A DNA stretch of 64,000 nucleotides from the IMG/VR virus record IMGVR_UViG_3300045996_000876, positions 4,869 to 68,868 of that record. The stretch is one strand, 5' to 3'. A program made the position numbers and the translations under genes. Shown in pieces: positions 4,950 to 63,718 of the stretch (its first letter is position 1; every line of letters starts with the position of its first letter). The notes beneath the pieces are model-generated. The model did no database searches. It was not told the origin of the DNA and worked only from the letters and a program-made list of their open reading frames with translations. The DNA is from a virus.

Positions 4950-5309
4950 GTGACTGAGCCAATCTTCGTTCCAACCGCGTACGATCCCGATGCCCCGCCG
5001 CTCATTGATCCCTCTGATCCTAACTATACGATGGTCAACTTCGTATATGTCTGTACGTCGTGTCAGACCGCGTTTGTCAAGGGAACCTACCCGCGAGACA
5101 TTGGCTACTCTTACTTCGCGCGGCTGGTTCGCGGAGAACGGTTCATTGAGCTCCCGGGCGGTGAGGGAGTCGCCCAGCAAGAGCCGCACGCCTGCCCTGA
5201 CCAGATCGGACATAAGGGTCCGGACCTCCTTGGAATCGCGGTTCTGGCCCAACTGAAGTACGCTGATCAACCACTCGTCATACGGAAGGCACCCAATGGG
5301 AACACGTGA
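4950..5309 (+). CDS. hypothetical protein
   Basis: GAGGAG RBS; CTSC motif. Confidence 0.6.
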   Translation: MTEPIFVPTAYDPDAPPLIDPSDPNYTMVNFVYVCTSCQTAFVKGTYPRDIGYSYFARLVRGERFIELPGGEGVAQQEPHACPDQIGHKGPDLLGIAVLAQLKYADQPLVIRKAPNGNT

Positions 5310-6318
5310 AGAGTTTGAGCACGGCTCGTCCGACGTTGAAGACTTCTTCTATTGGATCAACGAGCGTCACTCCATCTACCTGAAGCGGGCTGCTGGGCTC
5401 CCGAAGCCTTGGACCAACGACGAAGTTCTCCGGGACTACAAGTTCACCAATGCCTTCCGCGAGCTTGACCGTGGAACGGTCGCTCTCCGGGCGATGGAGA
5501 AGGATGTCGTGAAGCTGTGGCGGTTCGGCCATCAGCCGTTCGATGCCGCCGCGATCATATTCAATACCTTCTGGTACCGCTTCTTCAACCTGGACATCCA
5601 CGCGTACAGGCTGGGGATGTGCGACTACGAAACGCTCCAGACGTATATCTTCAAGAAGGTAGATGCCGACCAACAGGTGTTTACGGGTGCTCATATCGTC
5701 CGGGGTATCGGCTCCTCTCTCTCCGGAGCGGTAGGGAGCTTCAAGCACTACGATACGCTCCACGACCGTATCAAACGCGGGATGGGCGTGCTGAAGGCTT
5801 TTGACTACCTCGCCTTGGCCCATGAGATATGGTATGACCGTTACGAACTCGCGGCCAAGTTCGCGGAGTGTAAAACTCTCCAGCAAGCCTTCGACATTAT
5901 CCAAGGGTACTTCTTGCTGGGCGACTTCACCAGCTACGAACTCGTGTGCGACCTCCGCTGGACTCTTCTCTCGCACTGTACAGATATCCTGACCTGGGGC
6001 AACGTCGGCAACGGCGCAGTACGCGGGCTGAAGCGGCTCGGGCTGAAGCCAACTTCGGAGTCGATGGTCTATCTGTGGATGGAAGCTCCGGAGTATCTGA
6101 GCCCGGATGTCCGGTCTCATCACATCGCTAGCTACAGTGACGCCTTCGTTCCGACCAACCCAGTTCATATGAAAGACTACCTGCGGGACTGGGTTGGGCT
6201 CACTACGTTCCCGCCGTTTGAAATCCGCGAAATTGAACATTCTCTGTGCGAGTTCGACAAATACATTCGGGCCAAGTCGGGACAGGGCAGACCGCGTTCC
6301 AAGTATGACGGGAGATAG
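5296..6318 (+). CDS. 5-hydroxymethyl-pyrimidine DNA kinase helical-domain protein (aGPT-Pplase1 family)
   Basis: FFYWINERHSIY...PWTNDEVLRDYKFTNAFRELDRGT N-terminus; GNGAVRGL; EIEHSLCEFDKY C-terminus. Confidence 0.85.
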   Translation: MGTREEFEHGSSDVEDFFYWINERHSIYLKRAAGLPKPWTNDEVLRDYKFTNAFRELDRGTVALRAMEKDVVKLWRFGHQPFDAAAIIFNTFWYRFFNLDIHAYRLGMCDYETLQTYIFKKVDADQQVFTGAHIVRGIGSSLSGAVGSFKHYDTLHDRIKRGMGVLKAFDYLALAHEIWYDRYELAAKFAECKTLQQAFDIIQGYFLLGDFTSYELVCDLRWTLLSHCTDILTWGNVGNGAVRGLKRLGLKPTSESMVYLWMEAPEYLSPDVRSHHIASYSDAFVPTNPVHMKDYLRDWVGLTTFPPFEIREIEHSLCEFDKYIRAKSGQGRPRSKYDGR

Positions 6319-6321
6319 ACT

Positions 6322-6558
6322 ATGCCGGTGAGTCCCTACGCTCCTCCGCCCGGTTATATTGACGTGAAGACCTTCGCGAAGCTGGTGAACCGCGACAAGG
6401 ATTTCATCCACAAACTTACGCGAATCAATATGATCCCAACACTGTCGCGTGGTCCGAAGCGGCGATATATCGCTCAGCATTACGTGGCGAAGTTCCCGCA
6501 GATTCTCGAAAGTTACAAGCTTTCTTCCAATGCTCGTTACACAGGAGGTACGCGGTGA
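6322..6558 (+). CDS. small putative DNA-binding protein (excisionase/MerR-like HTH)
   Basis: YIDVKTFAKLVNRD...IP...RRYI pattern. Confidence 0.5.
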   Translation: MPVSPYAPPPGYIDVKTFAKLVNRDKDFIHKLTRINMIPTLSRGPKRRYIAQHYVAKFPQILESYKLSSNARYTGGTR

Positions 6559-7139
6559 TATACGATCTGAGAGGAACAAACGGCTCTGGGAAGTCTACCA
6601 TTGTTTTCGAGATGATGAAGGTGTTCGAATTCGCTGAGCATCCGTACCCGTTCGGGAGCACCGACAAGCCGGATTACTTCTTCAACGAGTGCCGGGCGCT
6701 GAACCTTATCGTCATCGGGAAGTACCGGACGCAGTGCGGCGGCTGCGATGGGATCACGTCGCAGGACCGTATTACCTCCGCGTGCCGGCACTGGGCTCTC
6801 GTGGAGGGTAGGAACGTCATCATTGAGGGCTCAATCGTCGCGAGCGTATTTGACCGCTGGAACAAGCTCGCGATCCAGGCCAACGACGATTACACGTTCT
6901 GCTTCCTGGACACGCCCGTTGAAGTCTGTATCGAGCGGGTGAAGAGTCGGAGAGCGGAAGCGAACAACACCGATGTCTTCGACCCGTATAAGACGCTGGT
7001 GCCCCGCTTCGGACAGATCAACCGTGTCTGGGCGAAGTGCCTGGACGCTAAACGCAAGTGCGCAGTTATCGAACACCAGCGAGCGTATGCCTCCTTCATG
7101 GAGTTGTACAATGCGACGCACCGTAGAGCCGTGGACTGA
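6555..7139 (+). CDS. P-loop nucleotide kinase of base-hypermodification clusters
   Basis: LRGTNGSGKST Walker A; GKY...GGCD; IIEG; CIERVKSRR lid; gene context. Confidence 0.85.
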   Translation: MIYDLRGTNGSGKSTIVFEMMKVFEFAEHPYPFGSTDKPDYFFNECRALNLIVIGKYRTQCGGCDGITSQDRITSACRHWALVEGRNVIIEGSIVASVFDRWNKLAIQANDDYTFCFLDTPVEVCIERVKSRRAEANNTDVFDPYKTLVPRFGQINRVWAKCLDAKRKCAVIEHQRAYASFMELYNATHRRAVD

Positions 7140-7159: not shown

Positions 7160-8173
7160 ATGGCGACCTTGAGGACAACGATGACTTTGAATTTTGAGCT
7201 CACTTCGAACGAACTGATGAACGACTTCTTGGACTACTCCAAGTACAGCATCTGGTCGAAAGACGTTGACCCGGTGTACGACGTTCTCAAGGCCATCCAC
7301 CGCTTGCTGGGCTACGGAGAAGGAGACCGCGACAACCGGGTGAAGCATACGTTCTGGTATCTCTCCTGGTACAACCTGATGTCGGCGCAGGAGGCATGGA
7401 ACTACGTGACGGAGACCGGTGACGAGCTTCCGGATTACAACCTGTGTAAGCTCCCGACCGGGATAGAGCGCCGCGGATTCCGAGACGGCTACCAGATGAT
7501 GAAGCATATGGAGTCGCTCCAAAAGATCGCGGCTGACTGGAACAACGCTCATAACAGGGACGGCCAAGGCTGGTTTGACGACTGGATCGCGGCAGGCTTC
7601 ACGAACAACGCCAAGGTCAACTGGGGTATCGCCTATGAACGGCTCCAGACGGTCTACGGGAACGGACGCTGGGCAGCATATAAGGGCTGCGAACTTCTCC
7701 AGAAGGTCTGCGGGCTAAACTTGGAACCTCCCGATATGGGACACAAGGGAAGCTCCGGACCGCGCAAGGGTCTGGCGATGCTCTTTCGGGATTGTCCCGC
7801 TCACGGCGATCAGAGCGCGCAAGCCATCGAGCTACTTGACCGGATGAGTGACGACTTGCTGGATCATATGCGCAAGTGGTATAGCGACAACCCCGTTGTC
7901 CAAGACCTAGGCGTGGTGGAAACTTGTCTCTGCGACTTCCACTCGATGGCTCACGGCGGGTATTACGTCGGGCACGACATCGACCTGATGCAGGAAGGTG
8001 TCAGCAAGTCAAAAGCTCCGCAGGAGGTGAAAGACCTTCTGTGGAACGCGCGAGCGGTAGCGCTGCCGCACCACTACCTTGGCGAGCTTGGCGGCTGGAA
8101 CGGCGTGGACAAAGATCGCAAGCGAGCTTACCGTGATCAGAACGTGATCATGATTCGCGGAGAACTGGAATGA
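7160..8173 (+). CDS. amino acid:DNA transferase (aGPT-Pplase2 / AADT family)
   Basis: DVDPVY, ERRGFR, GNGRWAAYK, ETCLCDF, YYVGHDI motifs; gene context. Confidence 0.85.
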   Translation: MATLRTTMTLNFELTSNELMNDFLDYSKYSIWSKDVDPVYDVLKAIHRLLGYGEGDRDNRVKHTFWYLSWYNLMSAQEAWNYVTETGDELPDYNLCKLPTGIERRGFRDGYQMMKHMESLQKIAADWNNAHNRDGQGWFDDWIAAGFTNNAKVNWGIAYERLQTVYGNGRWAAYKGCELLQKVCGLNLEPPDMGHKGSSGPRKGLAMLFRDCPAHGDQSAQAIELLDRMSDDLLDHMRKWYSDNPVVQDLGVVETCLCDFHSMAHGGYYVGHDIDLMQEGVSKSKAPQEVKDLLWNARAVALPHHYLGELGGWNGVDKDRKRAYRDQNVIMIRGELE

Positions 8174-8322: not shown

Positions 8323-9150
8323 GTGATCAACCATAACACCCCAATCGAAGCCTACGAAGTTCACGGCAGGGAAGTTCTCGTCAAGCGTGACGACCTGTGC
8401 GCAGACCCGCCCGCACCGTCATTGGCGAAGATTCGCGGAGCGTACGCCCATATCAAGGAGCTCAAGCAATCCGTCATCGGGAACCTCGATGCGTCCCACT
8501 CGCGGAACGGCTGGGTTGTCGCTGCGGTCTGTAAGATGCTCGGCAAGCACTGTGTGGGGTACTACCCGCAGAGCGTCAAGGATCGCGGCGTCAAGGATCA
8601 GCAAAAGAAGATTCTGGAACTGGGCGGCTCGATTGTTGCCCTGCCAGCCGGCCGCTCCGCGATCCTGTACGCCACGGCTCGGAAGCACCTGGCCGCGACG
8701 TTTGCCGACAGCTACCTGATGCCCAACGCTCTCAAGCTGAATGAGACCGTCTGGGAGGTAGCGAAGGAGGTAGTTGACTCGCGGGATAGCCTTCCGGAGT
8801 CGGGCAGCATCGTTATCCCTGCGGGAACCGGTACAATTGCGTCAGGAGTGGTGGAAGGCTTGATCCGTCTGGGCAGGGCGGAGTCTTACACCATCTGCGT
8901 TCACCTGGGCTATACGCGGGCACGGGAAGCGGTGGAGAGCTATATCCAGTCGAATCTCTGCCGCCCGATACCGGGCTTGCTGTACGTCGATGAGGGCTGG
9001 GATTACTCCGATGAGGCCAAGGAGACGGCGGTTGCGCCATTCCCTGCGTGTACTTACTATGAACTGAAGGCGTGGGACTGGATGACCCGCCCGGAAGTGC
9101 TACGGACGTTCAAGCCGGGACCGGTGGTGTTCTGGAATAGCGGCAATTAA
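8323..9150 (+). CDS. PLP-dependent enzyme, fold type II (candidate on-DNA decarboxylase)
   Basis: VKRDDL...KIRGA PLP lysine; IPAGTGT phosphate loop; FWNSG; gene context. Confidence 0.85.
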   Translation: MINHNTPIEAYEVHGREVLVKRDDLCADPPAPSLAKIRGAYAHIKELKQSVIGNLDASHSRNGWVVAAVCKMLGKHCVGYYPQSVKDRGVKDQQKKILELGGSIVALPAGRSAILYATARKHLAATFADSYLMPNALKLNETVWEVAKEVVDSRDSLPESGSIVIPAGTGTIASGVVEGLIRLGRAESYTICVHLGYTRAREAVESYIQSNLCRPIPGLLYVDEGWDYSDEAKETAVAPFPACTYYELKAWDWMTRPEVLRTFKPGPVVFWNSGN

Positions 9151-9443: not shown

Positions 9444-9700
9444 AAATCCGTGGATGGAAGTATCGCAAGTCTCACAGCGTAGTTCTCTCCGTGGACAACG
9501 GCTCGTTGATCGGGTTCTGTCTACAGCCTGAGCGGGACTTACATCTATTACACCCGGGTTGGACTCCGGAAAGAATGGACGTCCACGAGCACTTAGAAAA
9601 GATGACTGAGGAGGAGGTAAGCAAAGCGTTAGAAGTCTTACAACGGCTCAACCAAAAGATGGTTCGTGAGCTAATTTCTAGAGGAGACACTGATGGATAA
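9440..9700 (+). CDS. hypothetical protein
   Basis: Overlapping start/stop with both neighbours. Confidence 0.55.
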   Translation: MKIRGWKYRKSHSVVLSVDNGSLIGFCLQPERDLHLLHPGWTPERMDVHEHLEKMTEEEVSKALEVLQRLNQKMVRELISRGDTDG

Positions 9701-11099
9701 ATCCCTCTCAGCAGACGAGCTACTGGAGCTCACCGACCCGTACGCGTACCACATGCGTTCGGAGGCGCACGAGAACAAGATACCCGTCCAGATCGACCCG
9801 GAGACGGGCTGGCGGTATACGTTCCGCGATATCGGGATGACCCGGAACGCGGCGCAGGAGAACACCAAGGAGATGAAAGTCTACTTGGACCCGCTGCCCC
9901 ACGTCGTGCTGGACCAGAACGTACCGCTGCGTGGCTGGTATAAGTCGAAGGTGGAAAAACCGGGAGTGCGGGAACGTCCGTGCTACACGGAAGCGATCCT
10001 GACGCAGCCTTATGGCGGCTTCTGTCATGTGGGCTGCGGCTTCTGCTACATCAACAACGGCGTGCGCGGTTATCGCGGGCAGGGTATCTCTACCGTTGAC
10101 CCGTTCTACGGTCAGAAAGCGCGTCGCCAGATTGAGAAGATGCGGATGGGTGCGGCCGTCTATATGAGCTCCTTCATCGACCCGTTCATGGAGTTGGAAG
10201 AGCACTACCACAACACCCAGAACACCGCCCAGGCAGCCGTGGATCACGGGCTGCCCATCTTCTTCCTGACCCGCAAGATCGTACCGGGCTGGGCGTACGA
10301 TCTGCTCAAGGCTTCTCCGTACTCTTACCAGCAATTCTCGATCAACACCTGTAACCCCGACGATTGGAAGCGGCTCTCTCCACGTGCCGCGACTCTCCCG
10401 GAGATGATTGAGCAGGTACGGGAGATGAAGCGTCACGGCATCTATGTCTCCATCCAGGTCAACCCGATTGTTGCCGGGATAGTCTCCAACGACGACATCG
10501 TGGAGTTGATCCATATGCTCGCCCAGGCGGGAGCGGATCACCTGATCTTTAAGTTTGTGGAGATTGTCTACCCGTCGGTTCCCGGGATGGTTGCCCAGAT
10601 GAAAGCTCGCTTCGGAGACGAGCGTGGGAGCAAGTTCGAAGCTCTCTTCTGTGACAACATCGGCGGCGTCAAGACCATCGCGGAGAGCTACCGCAAGGAT
10701 GCTCTGGACCGCTTCGTCAAGGAGACGAAGAAGGCGGGCGTGACGATGGGTGTCTGCTATGAGTACGAATATGAGCGGGACAGCCAAGGGAATATTCTCA
10801 ACTCCACCGGCAAGACGATGGGTGCGAAGTATCTCACGGCTGATCAGTGCCATGGTCACCGTGTTCCGATGCATTTCCGGGAGTCGCTGGAGACGCAGTT
10901 CACACCGTTCGAAGAATGCCCGCCAAGTGGTTGTCTTACTTGCGGCGACCAACACGGCGGAGATAACAAGGTGCCTTGCGGGAATACTTCTCTTGGGCGA
11001 GCATCCGCTATGCTGCCTGGTGATTACAACGTCCAGTACCAGACCCTCACCATTGGTGGCCGCTCCGCCGCAGTCGGTTCCGTTCCCGCTCCTGAGTGA
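9693..11099 (+). CDS. radical SAM enzyme (candidate isomerase of the hypermodification pathway)
   Basis: PYGGFCHVGCGFCY CX3CX2C motif; extra C-terminal Cys cluster; gene context. Confidence 0.88.
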   Translation: MDKSLSADELLELTDPYAYHMRSEAHENKIPVQIDPETGWRYTFRDIGMTRNAAQENTKEMKVYLDPLPHVVLDQNVPLRGWYKSKVEKPGVRERPCYTEAILTQPYGGFCHVGCGFCYINNGVRGYRGQGISTVDPFYGQKARRQIEKMRMGAAVYMSSFIDPFMELEEHYHNTQNTAQAAVDHGLPIFFLTRKIVPGWAYDLLKASPYSYQQFSINTCNPDDWKRLSPRAATLPEMIEQVREMKRHGIYVSIQVNPIVAGIVSNDDIVELIHMLAQAGADHLIFKFVEIVYPSVPGMVAQMKARFGDERGSKFEALFCDNIGGVKTIAESYRKDALDRFVKETKKAGVTMGVCYEYEYERDSQGNILNSTGKTMGAKYLTADQCHGHRVPMHFRESLETQFTPFEECPPSGCLTCGDQHGGDNKVPCGNTSLGRASAMLPGDYNVQYQTLTIGGRSAAVGSVPAPE

Positions 11100-44088: not shown

Positions 44089-44089
44089 T

Positions 44090-44959: not shown

Positions 44960-44960
44960 C

Positions 44961-45464: not shown

Positions 45465-45473
45465 GGAAACGCT

Positions 45474-47840
45474 ATGGCAATGTTAGCACTAGGGCTGGTG
45501 GGCGGAATGATTGGCGGAGCTATCGGTGGCGGCTCCGCACTCGCCATCGCTGGACTCTCCCTCACGGGCGCTTCGGTAGGCTTCGCGGTAGGCGCTACCG
45601 TCGGCAGCGTGCTGGACTCTGCGTATGTCTTCCCGGCCATCTTCGGAGGGCAAAAGGGATTCGCCGGACCTCGCATTGACGACCTTCAGCTACAAGTCGC
45701 GAGCGAGGGCAGCCCGGTCAACTACTGCCTTGGACCGGAGAACCGGGTAGCGGGTACGATCATCTGGATGACGGACCTGATTGAGACAAAGAAGAAACAG
45801 AGCGGCGGAGGAGGTGGAGGCGGCGGCAAAGGTGGAGGCGGAGGCGGCGGCAGCGTTACCACGTACACCTACGCAGTCCACGTCGCTGTGGGCGTCTGCG
45901 AAGGGCCAATCACGGAGATAGACAAAATCTGGGCGGATGGAAAGCTCATCTATGACGTCCATACGCTATCGGTCTCCACCCACGTTGATCGAGTCACCGC
46001 ATACAAAGGCTTCGTAGGCACGGGGCAGATGCCCGACCCGCTGATTGAAGCATTCGAGGGAGCGGGCAACGTTCCGGCGTGGCGTGGGATCGCCTACGTC
46101 ATGTTTGAGAATCTCCAGTTGGCGGACTTCGGCAACCGCATCCCGCAATTCACGTTCCTGGTCCGGGCTCAGCCTGCGCTAGGCGTGCGGGACGCCATCG
46201 CTAGCTTGCTGGTACGAAGTGGCCTGACCTCCGACCAGTACGACACGACGCAGGTGACGGGGTGCCTTCGCGGTTACAGCTGGTCAGGCCCGCAGTCGGG
46301 TCAGGCGGTAGTGACGCCGATTATGAATGCCTTCGCGGTTCGCTGTCAGGAGGTCAATGGACAACTAGTCTTCTTCAATCGCGGCGATGAAGACGAAGTG
46401 GCGGTGGACTCCGATGACTTGGGCGCTCGCGAGTACAACGAAGGTAGCAAGCCTGCGTTCCATATCACCGACGGAAGCGGCTTGACTATTCCCGCTCAAG
46501 TCCAAGTCAACTTCTTGGACCCGGATAACGACCACCAGCGCGGCTCCGTCAACGAACGTCGCATCAACGTCCCCACGGAGTCGATCAACCAGATTGACGT
46601 TCCCTTCGTTCTGACGCAACGCCAGGCCAAGGAGATAGCGAAGCGGCAGCTGTATATGCCGTGGGATGAACGTCGCACCGTTACTCTTTCCCTCCCGCCC
46701 AAGTACCTCTACTTGGCGGAGCAAGACATCCTCACGCTCTCCTATAAGGGTCACAACTACAAGGTCCGTATCTTGGAGTTGGAGCGTGGAGCGAACTTCC
46801 TGCTCAACATCAAGGGAGTTATCCAAGAGGGAGATACGACCACGGCGGAAGGCGAGCAGGATGATCGGACGGTTGTGAGCGAGGTTCTGTATGAACCGCC
46901 GTCTCTGGTCGTCTACCCGCTGGACCTCCCGCCGCTCCGCACTGATGACTCCGACTCCGCTGGATTCTACTTGGCGGTGACGACTCCCAACTCCACCGAG
47001 CGGTTCCGCGGCGCGATCCTGTTCTCATCGGACGAGTCCGAAGGGAACTTCATCCAGACCGGGCTAGTGCCCGACGTAGCGACGGCAGGAACAACCGATA
47101 CAGTCTTGGGCGTTGCGTCCGTAGGCGTGTGGGACCTTATCAACACCGTGGACGTGACGCTCACCACCGGCTCGTTATCCAGCAAGACTCCTTCTGAAGT
47201 TCTTGCTGGGGGCAACATCGCGTATATCAATGGTGAGATACTAGGCTTCCAAGAGGCGGAGCTAATCGGCACCAACCAGTACCGTTTGAGCAAGCTTCTT
47301 CGCGGGCTGCGTGATACTGAAGACTTCATCTCACTCCATACGCTCAACGACCCGTTTGTCCTCTTGGACGAGTCGGGGTTGACGTTCCACCGGCTGAACC
47401 AGTCGGCCATCGAGACGTACCGGACGCTGCGCATTGTCCCCGTAGGATCGGTGGTGGAGGATACCCCAACGACTTCCGTGTACATCCGGGCGGCAACGCT
47501 CCGTCCGTTCGCTCCTGCGATGCTACGGATGAACAAGGATTACGGAACAGGAACAATCGAGCTTACCTGGTCGCACCGTACGCGCGATCTGGCTCGCGTT
47601 CTCTCGCTCAACGTCCCCAACGCGGACCAAGAGGTCTATACCGTGGCGATCCTCAAGGACAACCGCGTGAAGCGGACCGTAACGGTGACGGGCGCTCAGA
47701 GCTATGATTGGACATCCTCTGATCGTACTTCGGACGGCGTGACCGTGGACGTTGGACTGACGTTCAAGGTGACTCAGATATCGGCGACGGTTGGACCGGG
47801 TAGAACTGCGGTCAGCCGTGAATTTGACTTCGATCTATAA
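45474..47840 (+). CDS. central tail / tip attachment protein (GTA megatron-like)
   Basis: GPRIDDL...SEG; IWADGK; PAWRGIAY..FENLQLADFGNRIP; LLRGLRDTE. Confidence 0.88.
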   Translation: MAMLALGLVGGMIGGAIGGGSALAIAGLSLTGASVGFAVGATVGSVLDSAYVFPAIFGGQKGFAGPRIDDLQLQVASEGSPVNYCLGPENRVAGTIIWMTDLIETKKKQSGGGGGGGGKGGGGGGGSVTTYTYAVHVAVGVCEGPITEIDKIWADGKLIYDVHTLSVSTHVDRVTAYKGFVGTGQMPDPLIEAFEGAGNVPAWRGIAYVMFENLQLADFGNRIPQFTFLVRAQPALGVRDAIASLLVRSGLTSDQYDTTQVTGCLRGYSWSGPQSGQAVVTPIMNAFAVRCQEVNGQLVFFNRGDEDEVAVDSDDLGAREYNEGSKPAFHITDGSGLTIPAQVQVNFLDPDNDHQRGSVNERRINVPTESINQIDVPFVLTQRQAKEIAKRQLYMPWDERRTVTLSLPPKYLYLAEQDILTLSYKGHNYKVRILELERGANFLLNIKGVIQEGDTTTAEGEQDDRTVVSEVLYEPPSLVVYPLDLPPLRTDDSDSAGFYLAVTTPNSTERFRGAILFSSDESEGNFIQTGLVPDVATAGTTDTVLGVASVGVWDLINTVDVTLTTGSLSSKTPSEVLAGGNIAYINGEILGFQEAELIGTNQYRLSKLLRGLRDTEDFISLHTLNDPFVLLDESGLTFHRLNQSAIETYRTLRIVPVGSVVEDTPTTSVYIRAATLRPFAPAMLRMNKDYGTGTIELTWSHRTRDLARVLSLNVPNADQEVYTVAILKDNRVKRTVTVTGAQSYDWTSSDRTSDGVTVDVGLTFKVTQISATVGPGRTAVSREFDFDL

Positions 47841-47852
47841 CAAGAGGGAACT

Positions 47853-48362
47853 ATGACCACAACCGCGAAGATTGGAATTGAGATGCTCGCTGAAGGGCAG
47901 TCGGGCGCGGAGATAACCGTCAACGAAGGCTTGGTGCTTCTGGACGCCATGGTCCAGTGTACGGTTCTGGAGGTTGATCTCAACGCTCCGCCCGGTTCTC
48001 CGACGAATGGTGACGTGTACTTCCTGTACGGCGGTTCCGCGTCTGGCGCCTGGTCGGGCCACGACAACGAGTTTGCCGTGTACTTCGATGGATGGCGGTT
48101 CATCGCTCCCGGAGAAGGCTGGTTGCTGTTCAACGAAGAAGATGGGAAGCTGTACAAGTGGACCGCAGGCGACGGTCTCACGGCTCTCTCGAAAGACGTT
48201 GACGCGAACCTGACCGACAGCACGACCGGGACTCCCGGAGGTACGATCAGCAACGTTGGCGGCTCCTTCAACCAGACGACGTTGAACAACAACCTTGCGT
48301 CCATTGTCGCTTCCATCAACAACTTGAAGAGTAAGCTACGTGATGCCGGAATCATCAACTAA
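47853..48362 (+). CDS. DUF2793-like tail fibre-associated protein
   Basis: Q...EITVNEGL..LD; PPGSPTNGD.Y; GAWSGHD; W.F.APGEGW. Confidence 0.85.
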   Translation: MTTTAKIGIEMLAEGQSGAEITVNEGLVLLDAMVQCTVLEVDLNAPPGSPTNGDVYFLYGGSASGAWSGHDNEFAVYFDGWRFIAPGEGWLLFNEEDGKLYKWTAGDGLTALSKDVDANLTDSTTGTPGGTISNVGGSFNQTTLNNNLASIVASINNLKSKLRDAGIIN

Positions 48363-48843
48363 AATCGTGTTCACGGCGGAGCAGATCGCCATGAGAGTGA
48401 GGGAGCTAGCGGACCGGATGAAGGGAGAGCGGCCCATAGCGCTCGTCCCCATTCTGACCGGGGCAATCACCTTCACGGCGGACCTGCTCCGCCATCTCCC
48501 AGCAAGCACGGTAGTATCGCCGATGCTTATGGACCCTTACCACCGTGGGATGGTCCTGGCGGAACCGGACCTGTTGTTGCTACTGAACCGGGACGTATGG
48601 GTGGTGGATAACTCCATGGCCAGCGGGGTGACCCTGTATGGAGCGGTCAAGGCTATCCGACGGCACCGTACAATCGTGGACCTGAAGACCGTGGTGTTGT
48701 ACCGCTTGCTGGAGGGTCACCCCATGCCGATAGAACCGACCTTGTGCGGCTTCTTCCACCGCCCCACCGGGCGTCTCATCGGGTACGGTCAAGACCAGCA
48801 AGGAACTGGCCGTGGTCTGAGGGATATCGTGGGTTATAACTAG
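48340..48843 (+). CDS. HPRT-like phosphoribosyltransferase with a divergent PRPP loop
   Basis: EQIAMRVRELA, ILTGAITFTADLLR, VVDNSMASGVTL, IGYGQD...RGLRDI. Confidence 0.75.
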   Translation: MMPESSTKIVFTAEQIAMRVRELADRMKGERPIALVPILTGAITFTADLLRHLPASTVVSPMLMDPYHRGMVLAEPDLLLLLNRDVWVVDNSMASGVTLYGAVKAIRRHRTIVDLKTVVLYRLLEGHPMPIEPTLCGFFHRPTGRLIGYGQDQQGTGRGLRDIVGYN

Positions 48844-56290: not shown

Positions 56291-57043
56291 ATGTTCAATC
56301 TCTCAAAAGCCTTACGGGATTTCCATACCAAGAATAGCTTCCCCATCGACACCCGCTTGAAGGATCAGCGAGACGAAGCAGCAAACCGCGAGCTAGCGGA
56401 GTTGGGTGAGCGGCTCTGTGGGGAGTCGGAACGTATCAAACAGCCCGCGCTCCTGCTACAAGCGAAGGGAGATGAGCGGCTTTACCGGGCGCACCTCATG
56501 ATAGAGGAGCTTGGGGAGACGCTCATTGAGCTCGCAAGACAGAACTACGTCGGGGTTGCCGACGGGCTTGGCGACCTCCAGTACGTCGTGGAGGGAACCG
56601 CGTCAGTGTTCGGGATTCCGATGCCGGAGGTTCTGGAAGAGATTCACCGGTCGAACATGTCCAAGAAGAAGCGTGACCCGATTACCAATCCACGGATGAG
56701 AGATAAAGGTCCAAACTACTCTCCGCCCGATATTGTCGGAGCAATTGTTCGCGGGAAGCAGCGAATGAATTGGGAAGCGACAATGGCTGCGAATGAAGAG
56801 CTATCCGTGGAGCTACAGCGGAGCTTTGAGCGGACCGTGGACGGGGAGTTCACAGTCCATCCCGATAAGTGGCCGCTCGTAAGTCCGTTCAAAGATGACT
56901 ACGCAGCTGATGGGCTCCCGCCTGATTTAAGAAATGGGTTGACGGCGGATGGACACGGCTTCACCAACAACGACGGAGAACAGGTATGCGTCTGCGGCGG
57001 ACGCGGCTGTGTCTGTTGTAACACTAACGGAGACCCTAAATGA
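56291..57043 (+). CDS. all-alpha (MazG/PRA-PH-like) NTP pyrophosphatase
   Basis: LMIEELGE...ADGLGDLQYV...EIHRSNMSK...KGPNYSPPD. Confidence 0.85.
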   Translation: MFNLSKALRDFHTKNSFPIDTRLKDQRDEAANRELAELGERLCGESERIKQPALLLQAKGDERLYRAHLMIEELGETLIELARQNYVGVADGLGDLQYVVEGTASVFGIPMPEVLEEIHRSNMSKKKRDPITNPRMRDKGPNYSPPDIVGAIVRGKQRMNWEATMAANEELSVELQRSFERTVDGEFTVHPDKWPLVSPFKDDYAADGLPPDLRNGLTADGHGFTNNDGEQVCVCGGRGCVCCNTNGDPK

Positions 57044-58074
57044 TCCCTGTCTTTGAATCGGTCGATGAGCTCTGGCTCCACGCCGCTAACACCGTCATCG
57101 CCTACGGAGAAAACACCGGCTCCCGCGATGGAGAAAGCCGTGAGGTGCTCGGCTACTGCGGACGGCTCCTTGACCCGCGTTGTAACTTCCTGTTCAACCC
57201 GGTCCGCAAGATGTCGCCCAGCTACGCAGCCGTTGAGACGATGTGGTATCTCTCCGGAACGGACGACACGACGTTACTCCAGCAATACGCTCCGCAGTAC
57301 AAGCGGTTCACGGAGGATGGTATCCACGCCTTTGGAGCGTACGGATACCGCTGGGCGGCTGACCTACCGTTCCGGGTTGCGTTCGCAATGGCCTTCGCTC
57401 CGGACTTAGTGAACCTGGACCGTCCATGGCCCAGCGGGAAGTCTATCGGACCGCGAAGCCAGCTGGAAGTCTTGATGCTCCTCCTAAAGGAGAAGCCTGA
57501 GACCCGCCAAGCGGTACTTGCTCAGTGGAACGGTGGAGACCTGGTTTGCGCCGTGGAAGGGAACAAGCGAGACCTGCCCTGTACGCTGAACCTGAGCTTC
57601 ATCGTTCGCGGCGGAAAGCTCAATATGATCGCGACGATGCGCAGTAACGATCTGTGGCTCGGAACGCCCAACGACGTTTTCTGCTTCACGATGATACAGC
57701 AGGTCGTGGCGAATAACCTTGGGCTGGAGCTAGGCTGGTACCAACACAACGTTACGTCGCTCCACTACTATCTCCGCAATGAGGAGAAGCTCAAGCAGGC
57801 GGCATCCGTCGGTGCGTTCGGTATCGAGCAGCTACTGACGACCTGTAACGGCTCGCGGCTGAACGACTTCCTGGAGGATATGCTCACCCAGGAGCGTCAC
57901 AACCGTAATCACGAGATTGCCGGACCAGAGTGCTTTGGTATCCAAGACAATACTCTTCCGGGCTTGCTGATTCTCATGGCCGCTACCCGGTGGGCAAAGA
58001 ATCGTGAAGACCTCCTGAAGCGTTTTGATTCGAAGGTTCTGCGGAAGTTCATTGAGGAGTTCCACCCGTGTTGA
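57040..58074 (+). CDS. thymidylate-synthase-family dNMP (hydroxy)methylase with the dCMP-type Asp
   Basis: GAYGYR, TRQAV, DLPCT catalytic Cys, MRSNDLWLGTPND, SLHYY. Confidence 0.88.
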   Translation: MIPVFESVDELWLHAANTVIAYGENTGSRDGESREVLGYCGRLLDPRCNFLFNPVRKMSPSYAAVETMWYLSGTDDTTLLQQYAPQYKRFTEDGIHAFGAYGYRWAADLPFRVAFAMAFAPDLVNLDRPWPSGKSIGPRSQLEVLMLLLKEKPETRQAVLAQWNGGDLVCAVEGNKRDLPCTLNLSFIVRGGKLNMIATMRSNDLWLGTPNDVFCFTMIQQVVANNLGLELGWYQHNVTSLHYYLRNEEKLKQAASVGAFGIEQLLTTCNGSRLNDFLEDMLTQERHNRNHEIAGPECFGIQDNTLPGLLILMAATRWAKNREDLLKRFDSKVLRKFIEEFHPC

Positions 58075-58646
58075 TCATCGAAGGTTCCGACAATCTTGGG
58101 AAGACAACGGCGTGTAAGCGGCTGGTTGAGATCGTAGCGCATGAGCGATGTTTCGCTCCCGCCCGCTATGTCCATATGTCCCGCCCAAACTCCTCCTTCA
58201 ACTTCTTCACGCACTACCGCGACATGATCAGCCGGTACGCGGTTCAGGACCGCTTCCACCTTGGCGCTCTCGTCTGGCACGATAACGTCATGTCTAAGAC
58301 GCGGCTCCGCCTGATCGAGTCCTGGTTGGCTGAGGTGGGCTCCGTCGTCATCGTATTGATTGCGAGCGATGAGAAGTGGTACGAAGATCACCTGGAGAAG
58401 CAGCCCAAGGAGGAGATGTTCAGCCGTGGGCGTATCCGGGCGGGCAACCGGGAGTTCGCTGAGCTAATCGCAACGGACTACGCGCGTGCGGACTTCGTTC
58501 ACGACGTATCCAAAGACGGATTCTTGACGGACCGCCATCTCAATACGTATTTGGATGAGTGGTACGGTCGTTTATTCCAAGTTGAAAGGGCGGAAAAGTA
58601 TGATCCACTTATTGGCGTGCCGAACACTCGCGGCGGCAATGGTTGA
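58068..58646 (+). CDS. deoxynucleoside monophosphate kinase
   Basis: IIEGSDNLGKTT; QDRFH. Confidence 0.82.
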   Translation: MLIIEGSDNLGKTTACKRLVEIVAHERCFAPARYVHMSRPNSSFNFFTHYRDMISRYAVQDRFHLGALVWHDNVMSKTRLRLIESWLAEVGSVVIVLIASDEKWYEDHLEKQPKEEMFSRGRIRAGNREFAELIATDYARADFVHDVSKDGFLTDRHLNTYLDEWYGRLFQVERAEKYDPLIGVPNTRGGNG

Positions 58647-59103
58647 TGAGATTGACCAGTGCGAGGTCTGGGCCAAGGAGCGACAGACGTGCCTGCGTAA
58701 GGCAGTTGGTGCCTCCATCGTCAGCCCGAACCTTGATGGCTCGTTTACGCGGATGATCCGGACCCACAACGGACCTTCCGCGAACGGACACCAATGCTCG
58801 AACATCGTAGGTGGGTGCGGCTGCTCCCACTCCGAACCGCGAGCGATCTTTGAGATGATGAGAGGCGGCTGGCTCGCTCGCGGCCACGTTCGGAAGCTGA
58901 TCCTGCTCTGTACCTACTCTCCCTGTACGAACTGCGCGAACATCATCAACGACTCCGCCATAATCAACGGAGTCGTCTACCGACACCTCACCCAGCACGA
59001 TACTCTCGGTGTAGACTTGCTGGTCAACAACGGGCTTGACGTCGTCACCACGGACGAGCTCATGAACGGAAGCAAAGATGATCTTATTGGACAATGGCGT
59101 TAG
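58600..59103 (+). CDS. dCMP deaminase-family protein
   Basis: TCLRKAVGA, HNGP, HSE, SPCTNC zinc motifs; start could alternatively be 58639. Confidence 0.85.
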   Translation: MIHLLACRTLAAAMVDEIDQCEVWAKERQTCLRKAVGASIVSPNLDGSFTRMIRTHNGPSANGHQCSNIVGGCGCSHSEPRAIFEMMRGGWLARGHVRKLILLCTYSPCTNCANIINDSAIINGVVYRHLTQHDTLGVDLLVNNGLDVVTTDELMNGSKDDLIGQWR

Positions 59104-61117
59104 GATGGTTGAGACGGTCGAGGAGCTTCCGCAGCTTCTGTTCGCTGCGGAACTTTTCCTTGACGTCGAAACGCAACGCGTATACGACGGGTTGTACCCG
59201 TGGAAGGGAGACCGCATCTGCGGCGTGGGCGTGACGATCAACGATGACCCGCAGACGTGGTACATCCCGGTACGCCATACCGTCGGGGAGCGGTATAACA
59301 TCCCCATCGAAGCTTTCCAGAAGTGGCTCAAGGATACGGTCTGGACCGCGCAGGCCTGGATCAACCATAACCTTCCGATTGACGCGGTATTCTGTCACTT
59401 TGACGGAGCGACCTGGGACAAGTTCACTGGCCGCGCGATAGACACGCTGACGCTCTCCAAGGTCCACGACTCCGACCGCTTCGGGCACGGCTTGAAACAG
59501 CTTTGCCGCGAGTGGCTTGGGATGGAGATGTCGGAGGAGCGGGAGATCAAAGCCTATCTGGACGGGATAAAGTCCAAGTCTTACGCGGACGTTCCACCCG
59601 ATAAGCTCGGTGCGTACGCGGGTATGGACGTCATCGCCAACCGGAAGCTGTACCGATTCCTCCAAGCGAACCGTCCACCGCGCGATCGGACCGACAAGCC
59701 GGGCATCCCCGATATCTGGGAGACGGAGATTGGGCTTCAAGCCGGTCTCATAGACATCGAGATACGCGGACTCCAGGCTAACCGCAATGAGCTTCGCTTA
59801 GAGCAGCGGACGAGTCTGTCCAAAACTATTCAGTGGTGCGATGACGTGGCCCGCGTCACTGGGCGGGAGTTCACGAACAGCAACCAGTGTAAGTACGATA
59901 TGCTCATCAACCGGCTCCAGCTACCGGTTCTCGCGACGAAGTGGGAGAAGGATGAGTACACCGGGAGGAGATACGATACTGGGCGGCCAACCTTCGATAA
60001 GAAGGCAATGGCGTTGTACGAAGTTCACCCACACGTTACGTCCAGCAAGAAAGCTACCTTCATCGTCAAGAACCTCCGCGCACTCGCTACGGAGGGTCAG
60101 TACCAAGGGCTGTTTCTCATCCCGTTCCAGGAGCTCATGGATGACGATCAGATCATCCACCCGACGTACAACCCGGTAGTCCGCACCGGGCGGATGTCCT
60201 GTAAGCGCCCGAACTCGCAGCAGCAGAATAAGCGATCCAAGAAGCTCATCCACCCGCGTAAAGGCTACGGGTTCATCTCGTGCGATTACAGCCAGATCGA
60301 ATATCGGCTCATTGCCCATTACACCAATGACCCGGATACAATCCGCGCGTACAACGAGAATCCGGATATTGATTACCACCAGTGGGTAGCGGACCTGATC
60401 GGCGTCACTCGCAAGGCGGGCAAGACACTCAACTTCGGTATGGCGTACGGAGCGGGCAAGAAGAAGGTCGAAAGCGAACTGGCCGCGAATCCCGACATCA
60501 TCGCTCACGTATCGGAGATGATCACCGACCAGGTCAAGGCGGGCGGAGTCTCCGAAGCGGACCGGGATGAGCTCTTCCACCAGATGTGTAAGGCGCACGC
60601 TGCGAAGGTCTATCAGGCGTACCACGAGAAAATGCCCGGCATCCGACGTACCGCGAAGGAGGCGGATATCATCTGCCGCCGTCGTGGATACATCTTCAAC
60701 GCGTACGGGCGGAGACGCCACTTGCCTCAGACCCATGCCCATAAGGCTTTCAACTCGCTCGTCCAGGGCTGTGCGATGGACTTGATCAAGGAGCGGATGC
60801 TCTACCTGATGCCCCGGTATAACGCGTGGATGCGGGAGCGGGACATCCATATCGTCGCGAATGTCCACGATGAGGTTCTGTTCGAGGTACCGGAAGCGCT
60901 CTTGCTGGACCGGACCGTTCACGACTACCTGATCCAAGCCTTGGAGACGCCCACCATCAAGTTCCGGGTACCAATCCGGGTAGGTCTGGGCGTGTCGAAG
61001 AAGCACTGGGCGGAAGCGGCGGGTGATGACGCGATTCTCTCGGATGGCCGAGTTATCGACCGTTCGAAGGCGGAATTGCCGGAAGGGGCAGAGGTCGTGG
61101 CGGGAAAGCTTCGCTAA
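59078..61117 (+). CDS. polA: family A DNA polymerase with 3'-5' exonuclease
   Basis: LDVET; TGRMS; CDYSQIEYR; RKAGKTLNFGMAYG; NVHDE. Confidence 0.95.
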   Translation: MILLDNGVRMVETVEELPQLLFAAELFLDVETQRVYDGLYPWKGDRICGVGVTINDDPQTWYIPVRHTVGERYNIPIEAFQKWLKDTVWTAQAWINHNLPIDAVFCHFDGATWDKFTGRAIDTLTLSKVHDSDRFGHGLKQLCREWLGMEMSEEREIKAYLDGIKSKSYADVPPDKLGAYAGMDVIANRKLYRFLQANRPPRDRTDKPGIPDIWETEIGLQAGLIDIEIRGLQANRNELRLEQRTSLSKTIQWCDDVARVTGREFTNSNQCKYDMLINRLQLPVLATKWEKDEYTGRRYDTGRPTFDKKAMALYEVHPHVTSSKKATFIVKNLRALATEGQYQGLFLIPFQELMDDDQIIHPTYNPVVRTGRMSCKRPNSQQQNKRSKKLIHPRKGYGFISCDYSQIEYRLIAHYTNDPDTIRAYNENPDIDYHQWVADLIGVTRKAGKTLNFGMAYGAGKKKVESELAANPDIIAHVSEMITDQVKAGGVSEADRDELFHQMCKAHAAKVYQAYHEKMPGIRRTAKEADIICRRRGYIFNAYGRRRHLPQTHAHKAFNSLVQGCAMDLIKERMLYLMPRYNAWMRERDIHIVANVHDEVLFEVPEALLLDRTVHDYLIQALETPTIKFRVPIRVGLGVSKKHWAEAAGDDAILSDGRVIDRSKAELPEGAEVVAGKLR

Positions 61118-61409: not shown

Positions 61410-61438
61410 TTGCCCAGAGGCCAATGTGGTGGTATACT
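61410..61438 (+). promoter_or_regulatory. sigma70-type promoter with GGCCAATGTGG in the spacer
   Basis: TTGCCC-17 nt-TATACT. Confidence 0.7.
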
Positions 61439-61482
61439 CCTCTCAGTGGTCGGGTGTCCGACCGGTAGTCAAGGAGATAGAA

Positions 61483-62790
61483 ATGGCGAAGATGATTGCT
61501 CACGAAAAAGGTCGCACCACCAAGCTTACCGTCAACCAGCTGCTGGAGAGCATCTTCAAGCTCAACGAGAATCCCAGCCGCTCCGATAAGTTCACCGACA
61601 CCAAGATCGTAGGCTACATTCAGAACGAGTTCGACAGCCCCACCGCTGTGGACGTAGCGGAGGTCAGCCACCGCCGTCGTCAGTACAACTACGGGATGGG
61701 CTTCTGGAAAAATCGCGGCGCAGCCTACCGGAACGAAGAAGACAGGCACCTCAGCGACCGTCCGTTCAGCTACGCGTACGACACCAACGGCTCGCGTCTC
61801 CCGGAGACGGCACCCCGCGCTCCCCGTTCCGCTCCCTCCGCCCAGAGCCAGATGGACTCCGATACCCTCCGCCAGCTGGTTCAGCAACAGGTGGCCGATG
61901 AGCTCGCGGAGCGGGAACTGGTCGAGCGCGACCAGGTGACCGCGCTCGTGGCCAAGGAGCTTGCGAAGGAGCGGCCATCTATCACGATCAATGTTCCCGA
62001 ACGGAAGCACGTGGTCAAGATCGCAGGGAACCGCTGCCATAAGGCTTTCCAGAAGGTTCTCACCAAGGTCCAAGCGGGCGTGCCCGTCTTGCTGGTCGGG
62101 CCAGCGGGTAGCGGCAAGACGTTTTTGGCCGCCCAGGTGGCGGAAGCACTTGGCCTTCCCTTCACCTTCAACTCGATGTCCGAAGGCACCAAAGAATCCG
62201 ACCTCCTTGGCCGTACGCTCCCCGACGAAAAAGGCAACTGGTCGTATCAGCCCGCTCCCTTCGTTTCGACCTACACCAAGGGTGGCGTCCACCTGCTCGA
62301 TGAGATTGACGCGGCTGACCCGAACTTGCTGGTCCAGATCAACGCCGCAATCGCCAACGGCAAGCTCTCTATTCCCTTCCGGAACGACCCCACCCCGCTC
62401 CCGCGTCACAAAGACTCGGTGATCCTCGCAGCCGCCAACACGTTCGGTACCGGAGCCAACCGCCAGTACGTCGGGCGGAATCAGCTGGACGCAGCAACCC
62501 TCAACCGGTTCACGATGGGCACCGTTGAGATCAACTACGACACCGACCTCGAATCCGAGATAGTCAAGGCAGTACTGGGCGGAGAGATCACCCCGGATGG
62601 TGAGTCGCTCCTCCGCTGGGCTTGGACCACTCGCGACCGTATCAATGCCGCTAGCCTGCGTCGTTTGATGTCCTCCCGTAACATCGAGGATGGGGCCAAG
62701 CTCCTCCGGGTAGGCGAATCCCTCGCTGAGATCAAGGCTACTTACTTCTCCGGCTGGACCCAGGACGAAAAAGCGAAGGTGGCCGCTTGA
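61483..62790 (+). CDS. MoxR/CbbQ-like AAA+ ATPase
   Basis: GPAGSGKT, LLDEIDAA, AAANTFGTGANRQYVGRNQLDAATLNRF. Confidence 0.9.
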   Translation: MAKMIAHEKGRTTKLTVNQLLESIFKLNENPSRSDKFTDTKIVGYIQNEFDSPTAVDVAEVSHRRRQYNYGMGFWKNRGAAYRNEEDRHLSDRPFSYAYDTNGSRLPETAPRAPRSAPSAQSQMDSDTLRQLVQQQVADELAERELVERDQVTALVAKELAKERPSITINVPERKHVVKIAGNRCHKAFQKVLTKVQAGVPVLLVGPAGSGKTFLAAQVAEALGLPFTFNSMSEGTKESDLLGRTLPDEKGNWSYQPAPFVSTYTKGGVHLLDEIDAADPNLLVQINAAIANGKLSIPFRNDPTPLPRHKDSVILAAANTFGTGANRQYVGRNQLDAATLNRFTMGTVEINYDTDLESEIVKAVLGGEITPDGESLLRWAWTTRDRINAASLRRLMSSRNIEDGAKLLRVGESLAEIKATYFSGWTQDEKAKVAA

Positions 62791-62815
62791 CTCGCGGCCA
62801 ATGTGGAGGTAGAGT
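62787..62815 (+). promoter_or_regulatory. sigma70-type promoter with GGCCAATGTGG in the spacer
   Basis: TTGACT-17 nt-TAGAGT; the -35 box overlaps the upstream stop codon. Confidence 0.7.
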
Positions 62816-62842
62816 ACGGGGTAGTTAGTCAAGGAGATAGAC

Positions 62843-63718
62843 GTGAAGAAGACACTGACCAAAGAAGCTGATGGGGTATCGCGGGTGGAGTTCTCTGGCG
62901 TGGCGGAGCTTATGGCCTACGCCAACGATGGGGAGCGGAACCTGAACGTGGCGGAGAACATCGAACCGCTCCGCCACTGGCGGGAGTACGAAGGAGACCG
63001 GTGGGTCAACTACGCCACCCGGAAGAAGCTCACGGAGTGGATGACCTCCGCTCCTTCCCACCTGTTGGAGCGGGTAGAACGGTTCAAGGAGCGCATCCAA
63101 GATAAGGTCGCTCTCCCGACGAAGCAACGGCGCAAGCGGATTCGCCGTCAGGAGACCGGAGACGAGCTTGACCCGGTAGCCTGGGTCCAGCGTGACCCGA
63201 ACGGCTGGGACGACACCAAGAAGATTAGCGTGCCCCGGAACAGCATCAAGATCGGATTCAACTACAGCACCCCAGGTTCGATGCCGGCAGAAGCCTTGCT
63301 GGTCCGTGGCGCCATCGTCGCGGCTCTGGCTGACCTCCTCTCCCAGCAAGGGAATAACGTGGAGGTGGTAGGATTCGACACCGGGTATGGACTGGGTGAC
63401 TGTGCCTCCTTCGTAATGACGACAGTAATCAAACCGATGGAAGCGCCGCTTGATCTCTCCTCCCTCTGCGTAGCGGCTGCTGAGATCGGATTCTACCGCG
63501 TGGTAGTGGTACCCGCCTCAATCGTTTTCGCTTCGGCCAAGTGCCACTCCGGTCCGTGCGCATGCGGTCCGCTCCCGTCAGCGGAGAAGAAGTCAATGGA
63601 TATCGTAGTCGAATGGAGACAGACCAGCGAGGATGCCGCTGTTGAGTACGTGCTCGAACAGCTGGCCCGCTTTGGAACCCACCATAACACGGAGGTAGAG
63701 TCGGATGAACTTTTCTGA
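62843..63718 (+). CDS. VWA-like partner of the MoxR ATPase
   Basis: GDELD; degenerate MIDAS-like NYSTPGS; RGA..AL.D.L; adjacent to the AAA+ gene. Confidence 0.6.
   Translation: MKKTLTKEADGVSRVEFSGVAELMAYANDGERNLNVAENIEPLRHWREYEGDRWVNYATRKKLTEWMTSAPSHLLERVERFKERIQDKVALPTKQRRKRIRRQETGDELDPVAWVQRDPNGWDDTKKISVPRNSIKIGFNYSTPGSMPAEALLVRGAIVAALADLLSQQGNNVEVVGFDTGYGLGDCASFVMTTVIKPMEAPLDLSSLCVAAAEIGFYRVVVVPASIVFASAKCHSGPCACGPLPSAEKKSMDIVVEWRQTSEDAAVEYVLEQLARFGTHHNTEVESDELF

Follow-up and report, generated by a model that had tools for sequence, protein, structure and literature searches.

Which pyrimidine is hypermodified in a phage that encodes a thymidylate synthase (TS) homolog with the signature of a dCMP hydroxymethylase together with a set of enzymes that decorate thymine in Pseudomonas phage M6? 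The question is raised by a 64,000-nucleotide stretch of viral DNA (the window), which comprises bases 4869-68868 of the IMG/VR record IMGVR_UViG_3300045996_000876, a genome of 68,868 bp that is rated 100% complete. A first-pass annotation, made from the letters alone, had offered two routes: either 5-hydroxymethylcytosine (hmC) in DNA is itself hypermodified with amino-acid-derived groups, or hydroxymethylated dCMP is deaminated to the corresponding dUMP. Its dCMP-type reading of the enzyme stands, and the evidence favours deamination of a 5-hydroxymethyl-dC (5hm-dC) nucleotide over hypermodified cytosine. We think it slightly better than an even chance that the phage converts dCMP to 5hm-dCMP, deaminates a 5hm-dC nucleotide to 5-hydroxymethyl-dU (5hm-dU), and then hypermodifies the resulting 5-hydroxymethyluracil (hmU) in DNA.

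The TS-family open reading frame (ORF) at 57040..58074 (+ strand, 344 aa; Pfam Thymidylat_synt, PF00303, E 1e-19) contains TMRSNDLWLGTPNDVF, in which bases 57670-57675 read AAC GAC. The Asp codon GAC at 57673-57675, which the first-pass annotation had placed at the Asn177 position of ThyA, is present as claimed. A gap-free alignment pairs the segment RSNDLWLGTPND with the ThyA block RSCDVFLGLPFN, both with HMMER against TS and MilA chains and in a profile alignment, so that Asp212 of the window enzyme occupies the ThyA Asn177 position; it shares an alignment column with the Asp of T4 gp42, and its MilA counterpart is Asp186. In all, Asp178, Cys181, Thr182, Ser202, Asp204 and Asp212 correspond to ThyA L143, C146, H147, S167, D169 and N177, and the earlier argument from Asp177 to cytosine specificity is strengthened in that positions 143, 147, 167 and 169 match the T4 dCMP hydroxymethylase as well. 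The catalytic cysteine (Cys181) is present in what is by all measures below a TS fold, as are the deoxyribose-type residues Ser202 and Arg156 (ThyA R126). Among close homologs Asp212, Cys181 and Asp204 are invariant (32/32 aligned for Asp212) and Asp178 is nearly so. The published meaning of these residues is as follows: an acidic residue at L143 goes with a hydroxymethyl product, N177D with dCMP specificity, and D169N marks the 5-hydroxy-dCMP synthases (PMC13326640); positions 177 and 147, as Asp and Thr, best separate modified-cytosine from unmodified metavirome contigs (PMC8670742); and Asp186 of MilA is equivalent to Asp179 of T4 gp42 and to the Asn of TS (PMC5175136).

To place the enzyme among its relatives we read a signature of six positions, in the order ThyA 143, 146, 147, 167, 169 and 177, from an alignment of 171 TS-family ORF rows from all fetched loci; these are rows and not unique genes, as some contigs occur in two loci. 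The signature DCTSDD is found in 100 rows, including the window, T4 gp42, Enterococcus phage VPE25 and Manatee Spring phage MW202657, and DCNSDN in 64 rows, including SPO1, SP10, M6, YuA, ViI, PhiW-14, PaMx11, Sonora, LysYB1, Pam3, Montesquieu and Vibrio K469. Three rows, with ThyA and td, read LCHSDN, and there is one row each of ECTSND (RB69 gp48, the 5-hydroxy-dCMP, or 5hodCMP, synthase), DCTSDN (G038), DCNSDD (G036) and a truncated signature. All 12 of the cultured phages checked that have hmU or a 5-hydroxymethyldeoxyuridine DNA kinase (5-HMUDK) are DCNSDN, with Asn177 and Asn147, and 0/12 has Asp177. In a TS tree of 53 rows built by quick maximum likelihood, the window enzyme falls in a starred clade (97) of 13 Asp-type rows, outside another starred clade (98) of 25 rows that consists of all 23 Asn-type rows plus G036 and G038. 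The first-pass annotation had named clustering with Asp-bearing dUMP hydroxymethylases as the outcome that would speak against it; no such clustering is seen, as the enzyme lies outside the dUMP clade and the cultured hmU and 5-HMUDK phages checked lack Asp177. T4 gp42 sits on long branches with RB69 gp48 and one metagenomic protein in the same quick tree, and the window enzyme is not in that clade.

The fold points the same way. An AlphaFold2 model of the window enzyme has a pLDDT of 91.5, and every one of the Foldseek matches listed belongs to the TS family. The closest solved structure is MilA, both by sequence (E 3.6e-25, the best TS reaching 3e-13) and by fold (whole-length TMq of 0.72-0.78 for the AlphaFold2 model, compared with about 0.57 for TS). 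MilA is the CMP 5-hydroxymethylase of mildiomycin biosynthesis (PDB 5jnh, 5b6d); its identity to the window enzyme is 24-25%, it likewise has Asp at 143 and 177, and it shares the C-terminal helical extension of about 90 aa found in the Asp-type family. The window enzyme is 98 aa longer than T4 gp42. The family is large, with 513 representative clusters at E <= 1e-30. At the position where ThyA, T4 gp42 and YuA have Arg-Arg, its members have TRQ, in which the Arg is invariant and the Gln nearly so. From signature, phylogeny and fold we assign the enzyme to the cytosine type, and have filed it as one that would work like a dCMP hydroxymethylase, and not as a close relative of gp42.

Two other classes were considered for this protein and rejected, and a third does not fit it. 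It is not a 5-hydroxy-dCMP synthase of the RB69 gp48 type, as Asp204 is retained at the ThyA D169 position where RB69 has Asn. Nor is it a ribonucleotide (CMP) hydroxymethylase like MilA, in which Ala176 and Lys133 favour ribo substrates, Ser and Arg at these positions favouring deoxy substrates (PMC5175136); the window has Ser202 and Arg156. The dUMP hydroxymethylase class of SPO1 gp29 and M6, whose known members all have Asn at 177 and 147, does not fit an enzyme with Asp and Thr there and a position outside the Asn-type clade. The complete 68.9-kb genome contains no second TS gene and no dUMP-type hydroxymethylase, the Asp-type gene being its only member of the TS family.

The hydroxymethylase gene is part of a nucleotide cassette on the + strand whose genes are so closely spaced that stops and starts overlap. 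Upstream is a MazG/PRA-PH-like nucleoside-triphosphate pyrophosphohydrolase (56291..57043; Pfam PRA-PH, E 3e-9; PHROG 671, E 1.4e-19), with an ORF open from 56114, a likely start at ATG 56291, and a stop that overlaps the TS start (ATGA). Downstream are a P-loop protein (GKT) that is a putative deoxynucleoside monophosphate (dNMP) kinase (58068..58646), a zinc deaminase of the dCMP/cytidine deaminase family (58639..59103; Pfam dCMP_cyt_deam_1, E 2.2e-7; PHROG 174, dCMP deaminase), the ORF of which is open from 58555 with a likely start at ATG 58639 overlapping the upstream stop by 8 nt, and, as the last gene of the cassette, a family A DNA polymerase (PolA) with a 3'-5' exonuclease (59078..61117; Pfam DNA_pol_A, E 7e-40, and DNA_pol_A_exo1). 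The order MazG, TS, P-loop, deaminase, PolA is kept in many related loci, and syntenic homologs of the P-loop gene are present in 21/28 of those examined. The first-pass annotation had likened the flanking genes to the hmC kit of T4, in which gp56 dCTPase, gp42, gp1 dNMP kinase and cd dCMP deaminase provide analogous adjacent activities and the hydroxymethylase signature, DCTSDD, is identical. The likeness is borne out by the pyrophosphatase and the deaminase; the kinase label is a guess from position, because the P-loop protein has no Pfam or PHROG family and offers a structural lead alone, to a viral thymidylate-kinase-like cluster (TM 0.63). Unlike T4, this phage lacks a dTMP-forming TS, and no glycosyltransferase match was found in the 72 ORFs scanned with Pfam; it has an hmU-type module instead.

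That module is encoded on the + strand near the other end of the window. It begins with an HMUDK_hel protein (5296..6318; Pfam HMUDK_hel, E 1.2e-40), a homolog of YuA gp14 and Pam3 gp50 that is 30% identical to the former; such proteins carry the label aGPT-Pplase clade 1 in some phage records. There follow a P-loop kinase of the 5-HMUDK family (6555..7139; Pfam HMUDK_HMUD1, E 2.2e-11; 27% identity to YuA gp13), an aGPT-Pplase2 or amino-acid:DNA transferase (7160..8173; Pfam ADDT, E 7.5e-16; 35-37% identity to actinophage aGPT-Pplase2), a pyridoxal phosphate (PLP) dependent enzyme homologous to the M6/YuA decarboxylase (8323..9150; Pfam PALP; PHROG 7093, E 2e-76; 46% identity to YuA gp11) and a radical SAM enzyme (9693..11099; Pfam Radical_SAM; PHROG 9252, E 1.7e-134), which is 46.6% identical over 464 aa to YuA gp12 and a homolog of the M6 gp53/YuA gp12 glycinyl-thymine isomerase. 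The M6 counterparts are gp55-like, gp54, gp51, gp52 and gp53, with functions as described in PMC8989533. The earlier claim of an M6-type kinase, transferase, PLP and radical SAM set in the same genome is therefore upheld by Pfam and PHROG matches, and the cluster has the expected features in a kinase, an aGPT-Pplase2 with the Glu-Thr pair and Cys nucleophile, and radical SAM and PLP homologs.

The transferase bears on the question of the base. In the solved structure of PaMx11 Pplase2, the Glu-Thr pair coordinates a metal in contact with O4 of the flipped thymine, with the Cys as the nucleophile that attacks C6 (PMC11472151); metal, Glu and Thr are essential in the 15599 enzyme (PMC13458397). 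The E-T-x-x-C motif is kept in the window (VETCLCDF), as it is in its nearest Asp-type relative and in the YuA-like and actinophage enzymes. A commercial 5-HMUDK phosphorylates hmU DNA and not hmC DNA (PMC6457204). No passage on base-recognition residues of 5-HMUDK was found in PMC13458397. Among isolates, the transferase has its closest homologs (35-37% identity) in phages without a TS homolog, where they adjoin ParB, a TET/JBP T-dioxygenase and a 5hmU kinase. In these actinophages, for example Gordonia phage Wooper and Mycobacterium phage Phelemich, hmU arises by oxidation of thymine in DNA; the two named have 0 PF00303 matches and no radical SAM or PLP gene in the 8.5-kb regions around the transferase, whose motif reads VETSLCDFHS compared with VETCLCDFHS in the window. 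By homology, then, the post-replicative module looks uracil-directed.

M6 and YuA, which make 5-(2-aminoethyl)uracil (5-NedU), have the same set of P-loop 5-HMUDK, HMUDK_hel, aGPT-Pplase2, PLP and radical SAM proteins (PMC8989533), and a PolA gene near their TS homolog, as in the window. However, clusters of the M6 type take their hmU from a dUMP hydroxymethylase, and that of M6/YuA is the Asn177/Asn147 type in the other clade, YuA gp17 being only 28% identical to the window enzyme, the sole TS-family gene here, which is Asp-type. The window transferase has no BLAST match to YuA gp10 at E 1e-5, and the rest of the genome is distant from YuA (PolA 25% identity); the PLP and radical SAM enzymes, at 46%, are the best conserved proteins between the two, the kinase (27%) and HMUDK_hel protein (30%) having diverged.

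The clearest correlate of the Asp-type pairing is a deaminase, the distribution of which was examined by seeking PF00383 in whole HMUDK_hel-bearing IMG/VR records, eight further Asn-type loci remaining outside the count. A deaminase-family gene is present in 18/21 records with an Asp177 TS homolog and in 2/44 with an Asn177 homolog (Fisher p 4e-11), and among records that are >= 90% complete in 9/9 and 2/15 respectively (Fisher p 4e-5), although the records are related and clustered and the p-values therefore overstate their independence. The first figure comprises 13/15 in the first set, 4/5 new records and G036, with G046 at 24 bits where the Pfam cut-off is 25; the second comprises 2/43, both YuA-like, and G038, which has none. 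In 22 Asn-type records that were also searched with PF14437, no further deaminase came to light. Counted by lineage, there are about 5 separate Asp-type pairings, and 4 of them have a deaminase. Two genomes look like a natural single-residue experiment: G036 (L213; DCNSDD), the only Asp177 variant within the Asn-type clade, has a deaminase directly beside its TS gene, and its Asn177 neighbour G038 (L215; DCTSDN) has no deaminase.

Deaminases encoded in such cassettes have been characterised in a 2024 preprint (10.1101/2024.12.05.627091). In modified-cytosine metavirome contigs 104/149 dCMP deaminase genes lie <= 3 kb from a TS homolog, compared with 17/277 in unmodified contigs, and co-localisation is otherwise strongest for PRA-PH, DNA_pol_A and its exonuclease; the window, with dCMP_cyt_deam_1 in cis with an Asp177 TS homolog, PRA-PH and PolA, has this arrangement, like that of the 5mC/5hmC-selective deaminases (mSCD) of metaviromes. 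Of 56 active deaminases, more than 60% favoured 5mdCTP and/or 5hmdCTP, and when co-expressed with T4 gp42 and gp1, seven candidates gave 5hmdU in DNA, so that enzymes encoded beside Asp177 TS homologs turned 5hmdC into 5hmdU in vivo. The role proposed there is to provide Xp12-like phages with dTTP made from 5m-dC nucleotides. The logic, in which C5 is modified first and the base is then deaminated, is that which we propose for the window, except that the TS homologs tested were methylases and the product of deamination was ordinary dTTP. Because position 143 of the window enzyme is Asp, the hydroxymethylase type, deamination would here give 5hm-dU, which the hypermodification module could use. 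The word stem of hypermodification has 0 occurrences in the text of the preprint. To the first-pass annotation neither route was known; this holds for the pairing itself, as our literature search found no description of a dCMP hydroxymethylase or hmC combined with a 5-HMUDK/aGPT-Pplase module, but not for its deamination step, as the methyl analogue and the in vivo conversion of 5hmdC to 5hmdU are both in the preprint.

We therefore propose the following pathway. The MazG-like enzyme would supply dCMP, which the TS homolog, as its signature, phylogeny and fold suggest, would convert to 5hm-dCMP; phosphorylation of this product would fall to the P-loop protein together with host kinases. The deaminase, whose gene follows downstream with that of the P-loop protein in between, would convert the 5hm-dC mono- or triphosphate to a 5hm-dU nucleotide, a step proposed on the strength of the association data together with the published deaminases from the same cassette type. 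PolA would incorporate 5hm-dU, after which the 5-HMUDK-family kinase would phosphorylate hmU in DNA, the metal-dependent aGPT-Pplase2 would exchange the phosphate for an amine donor, and the radical SAM and PLP enzymes would tailor the adduct to a 5-NedU-like base. Should the deaminase act on the triphosphate, 5hm-dCTP would be present in the pool and hmC would probably replace some or all of the C too, so that hmC may enter the DNA alongside. That both pyrimidines are non-canonical, with hmC for C and an hmU-derived adduct for part of T, is a possibility that we entertain only tentatively.

How often the Asp-type enzyme and the module occur together was assessed in both directions, with relatives retrieved by alignment queries (TS and HMUDK_hel), since single-protein queries gave none. 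Half of the IMG/VR records with the closest Asp-type TS homologs (15/30) also hold HMUDK_hel, including the four closest complete genomes. The reverse survey covered 80 HMUDK_hel loci, the TS gene of each record being typed by signature; the 77 rows of the resulting HMUDK_hel tree comprise 22 with an Asp-type TS, 45 Asn-type, 2 odd and 8 in which no TS was found. The window protein is in a starred clade (99) of 17 rows, 16 of which have an Asp-type TS, nested among Asn-type rows, and further Asp-type pairings (G023/G025/G026/G027, L165 and L174) branch off elsewhere. By parsimony this tree requires 5 changes of the Asp label, and starred branches make at least 2 of them unavoidable. If the base remains uracil, Asp-type TS genes could be associated with separate HMUDK_hel branches without any change in the target of the module. 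Altogether the pairing of Asp177 with HMUDK_hel is found in at least 21 related uncultured viral genomes. A search for a cultured phage with both gave none: HMUDK_hel is in 0/4 of the Asp-type records tested (VPE25, MW202657, Agathobaculum AB434P2 and GodonK), and the 12 cultured hmU or 5-HMUDK phages checked are Asn-type. Also of note is G048 (L165, L210, L220), a 34-kb fragment rated 19% complete, which encodes a canonical ThyA, a T4-gp42-like Asp enzyme, a deaminase and HMUDK_hel within about 7 kb.

The best surviving alternative, although we regard it as unlikely, is that cytosine itself is hypermodified. In this case 5hmC would be in the DNA, the kinase, transferase, radical SAM and PLP enzymes would be retargeted to hmC to give, for example, 5-(2-aminoethyl)cytosine, and the deaminase would serve only the dUMP/dTTP balance, as in T4. 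To our knowledge this base has been found in no DNA. The signature and phylogeny of the TS homolog, which indicate a dCMP substrate, and the lack of a dUMP-type hydroxymethylase or second TS in the complete genome are as expected if cytosine is the target, and the Asp-type clade of HMUDK_hel is compatible with a co-adapted specificity. The much greater divergence from YuA of the kinase and HMUDK_hel than of the PLP and radical SAM proteins also speaks for this alternative. The cassette is also enriched in metavirome contigs with modified cytosines (10.1101/2024.12.05.627091). However, the Glu-Thr pair is unchanged, and it contacts the O4 carbonyl in the solved Pplase2, where cytosine has an amino group (PMC11472151); the transferase's nearest isolate homologs act downstream of thymine dioxygenases; and the one 5-HMUDK tried on hmC DNA was inactive (PMC6457204). 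Retargeting of four or five enzymes would also be needed in each of 2 to 5 separate HMUDK_hel branches, and the deaminase, which cytosine hypermodification does not require, is nevertheless in all nine near-complete genomes with Asp177 and HMUDK_hel.

We give little credence to a conventional route in which dUMP is hydroxymethylated despite Asp212 and the deaminase does no more than turn dCMP into dUMP, as has been suggested for SPO1, YuA and SH-Ab 15599: the gene content of the phage (NTP pyrophosphatase, TS homolog, kinase, deaminase, PolA and HMUDK module) is the same as that of the accepted dUMP route (PMC8989533; PMC13458397) and a metavirome survey named TS homologs near such clusters dUMP hydroxymethylases (PMC8989533), but the separating power of Asp177 and Thr147 and the uniform Asn177 and Asn147 of the cultured hmU phages speak against it, residue predictions held for 5/7 Asp177 enzymes (10.1101/2024.12.05.627091) and for nine D169N enzymes (PMC13326640), and, as Asn-type phages almost never have a deaminase, dUMP supply does not explain its presence in Asp-type phages.

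Deamination of a 5hm-dC nucleotide thus remains our preferred reading, notwithstanding several observations that weigh against it. Among them are two genomes that have the Asp-type TS and HMUDK_hel and in which a deaminase was not found. One, G020 (L022, L129; 43.7 kb, with terminal repeats), has MazG, the Asp-type TS, the P-loop gene, PolA and a divergent HMUDK_hel, and possible explanations are a true hmC-directed module, which would suit cytosine hypermodification, or dependence on a host deaminase; the other, G041, is 79% complete. Nor are deaminases confined to Asp-type phages with HMUDK_hel, many of those without it having one (9/15 at E <= 0.01, 7/15 above the Pfam cut-off, 4/6 of the complete genomes), so that the coupling may belong to the cassette and not to the hypermodification module, following the logic by which T4 dCMP deaminase leads to dTMP. 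Sixteen of the 22 Asp-type rows are in a single HMUDK_hel clade, and both the TS and the HMUDK_hel trees are quick-search trees. The deaminase has a single weak match in the PDB (4p9c, E 2.4e-4), only distant kin having been solved, and this match says nothing on its substrate. The hmU specificity of 5-HMUDK is that of one commercial enzyme, and every catalytic step and substrate assignment in the pathway is made by homology.

The nature of the final base is a further point on the same side. Lys248 of the YuA Pplase2 binds the glycine carboxylate, and Lys248 and Tyr257 are the glycine-binding residues (PMC13458397). In an alignment of the window transferase with PDB 25qc, for which the E-value is only 0.087, Asp is at the position of Lys248, with Tyr257 and Asp262 kept; Gordonia phage Wooper and Mycobacterium phage Phelemich, whose motif is VETSLCDFHS/N, also have this Asp. 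Because of this substitution the amine donor may differ from glycine, and the final base from the 5-NedU of M6.

If the proposed route is true, it would be a third entry to thymidine hypermodification, besides the hydroxymethylation of dUMP and the oxidation of thymine in DNA. It would also give the hydroxymethylase-linked phage deaminases that prefer 5mC or 5hmC a role in making 5hm-dU nucleotides. TS homologs beside 5-HMUDK clusters should not be annotated by default as dUMP hydroxymethylases, and the state of residue 177 together with the deaminase (18/21 compared with 2/44) offers a simple predictor. Some phages are predicted to have hmC and hypermodified thymine together, which is relevant to restriction evasion, sequencing and enzyme tools.

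The remainder of the genome adds context. The window has a G+C content of 57.8%, with almost every long ORF on the + strand, and the initial 4.9 kb of the genome, which precede the window, yielded nothing relevant. An N6/N4 DNA methylase is encoded at 2522-3304, and a sigma-70 region-2 protein at 11368-11952, directly 3' of the radical SAM gene; the region 61426-63715 encodes a CobS-like AAA_5 ATPase and, behind it, a DUF7192 protein. The ORF at 15446-16231 matches Sulfotransfer_3 (E 7.5e-9) and has no PHROG family. Another, at 12613-13068, has a weak match to nucleoside 2-deoxyribosyltransferase that is under the cut-off (E 0.0015); this superfamily includes nucleotide N-hydrolases such as MilB, so that the protein might act on the nucleotide pool. 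The tail genes (41654-48359) match DUF2460, phiJL001 Gp84, BR0599, Rcc01698_C and DUF2793, and the block ends with a phosphoribosyltransferase-domain ORF (48340-48840; E 1e-6) that has no PHROG family. Tail proteins of this set are characteristic of alphaproteobacterial phages and gene-transfer agents, which hints at a host in the Alphaproteobacteria.

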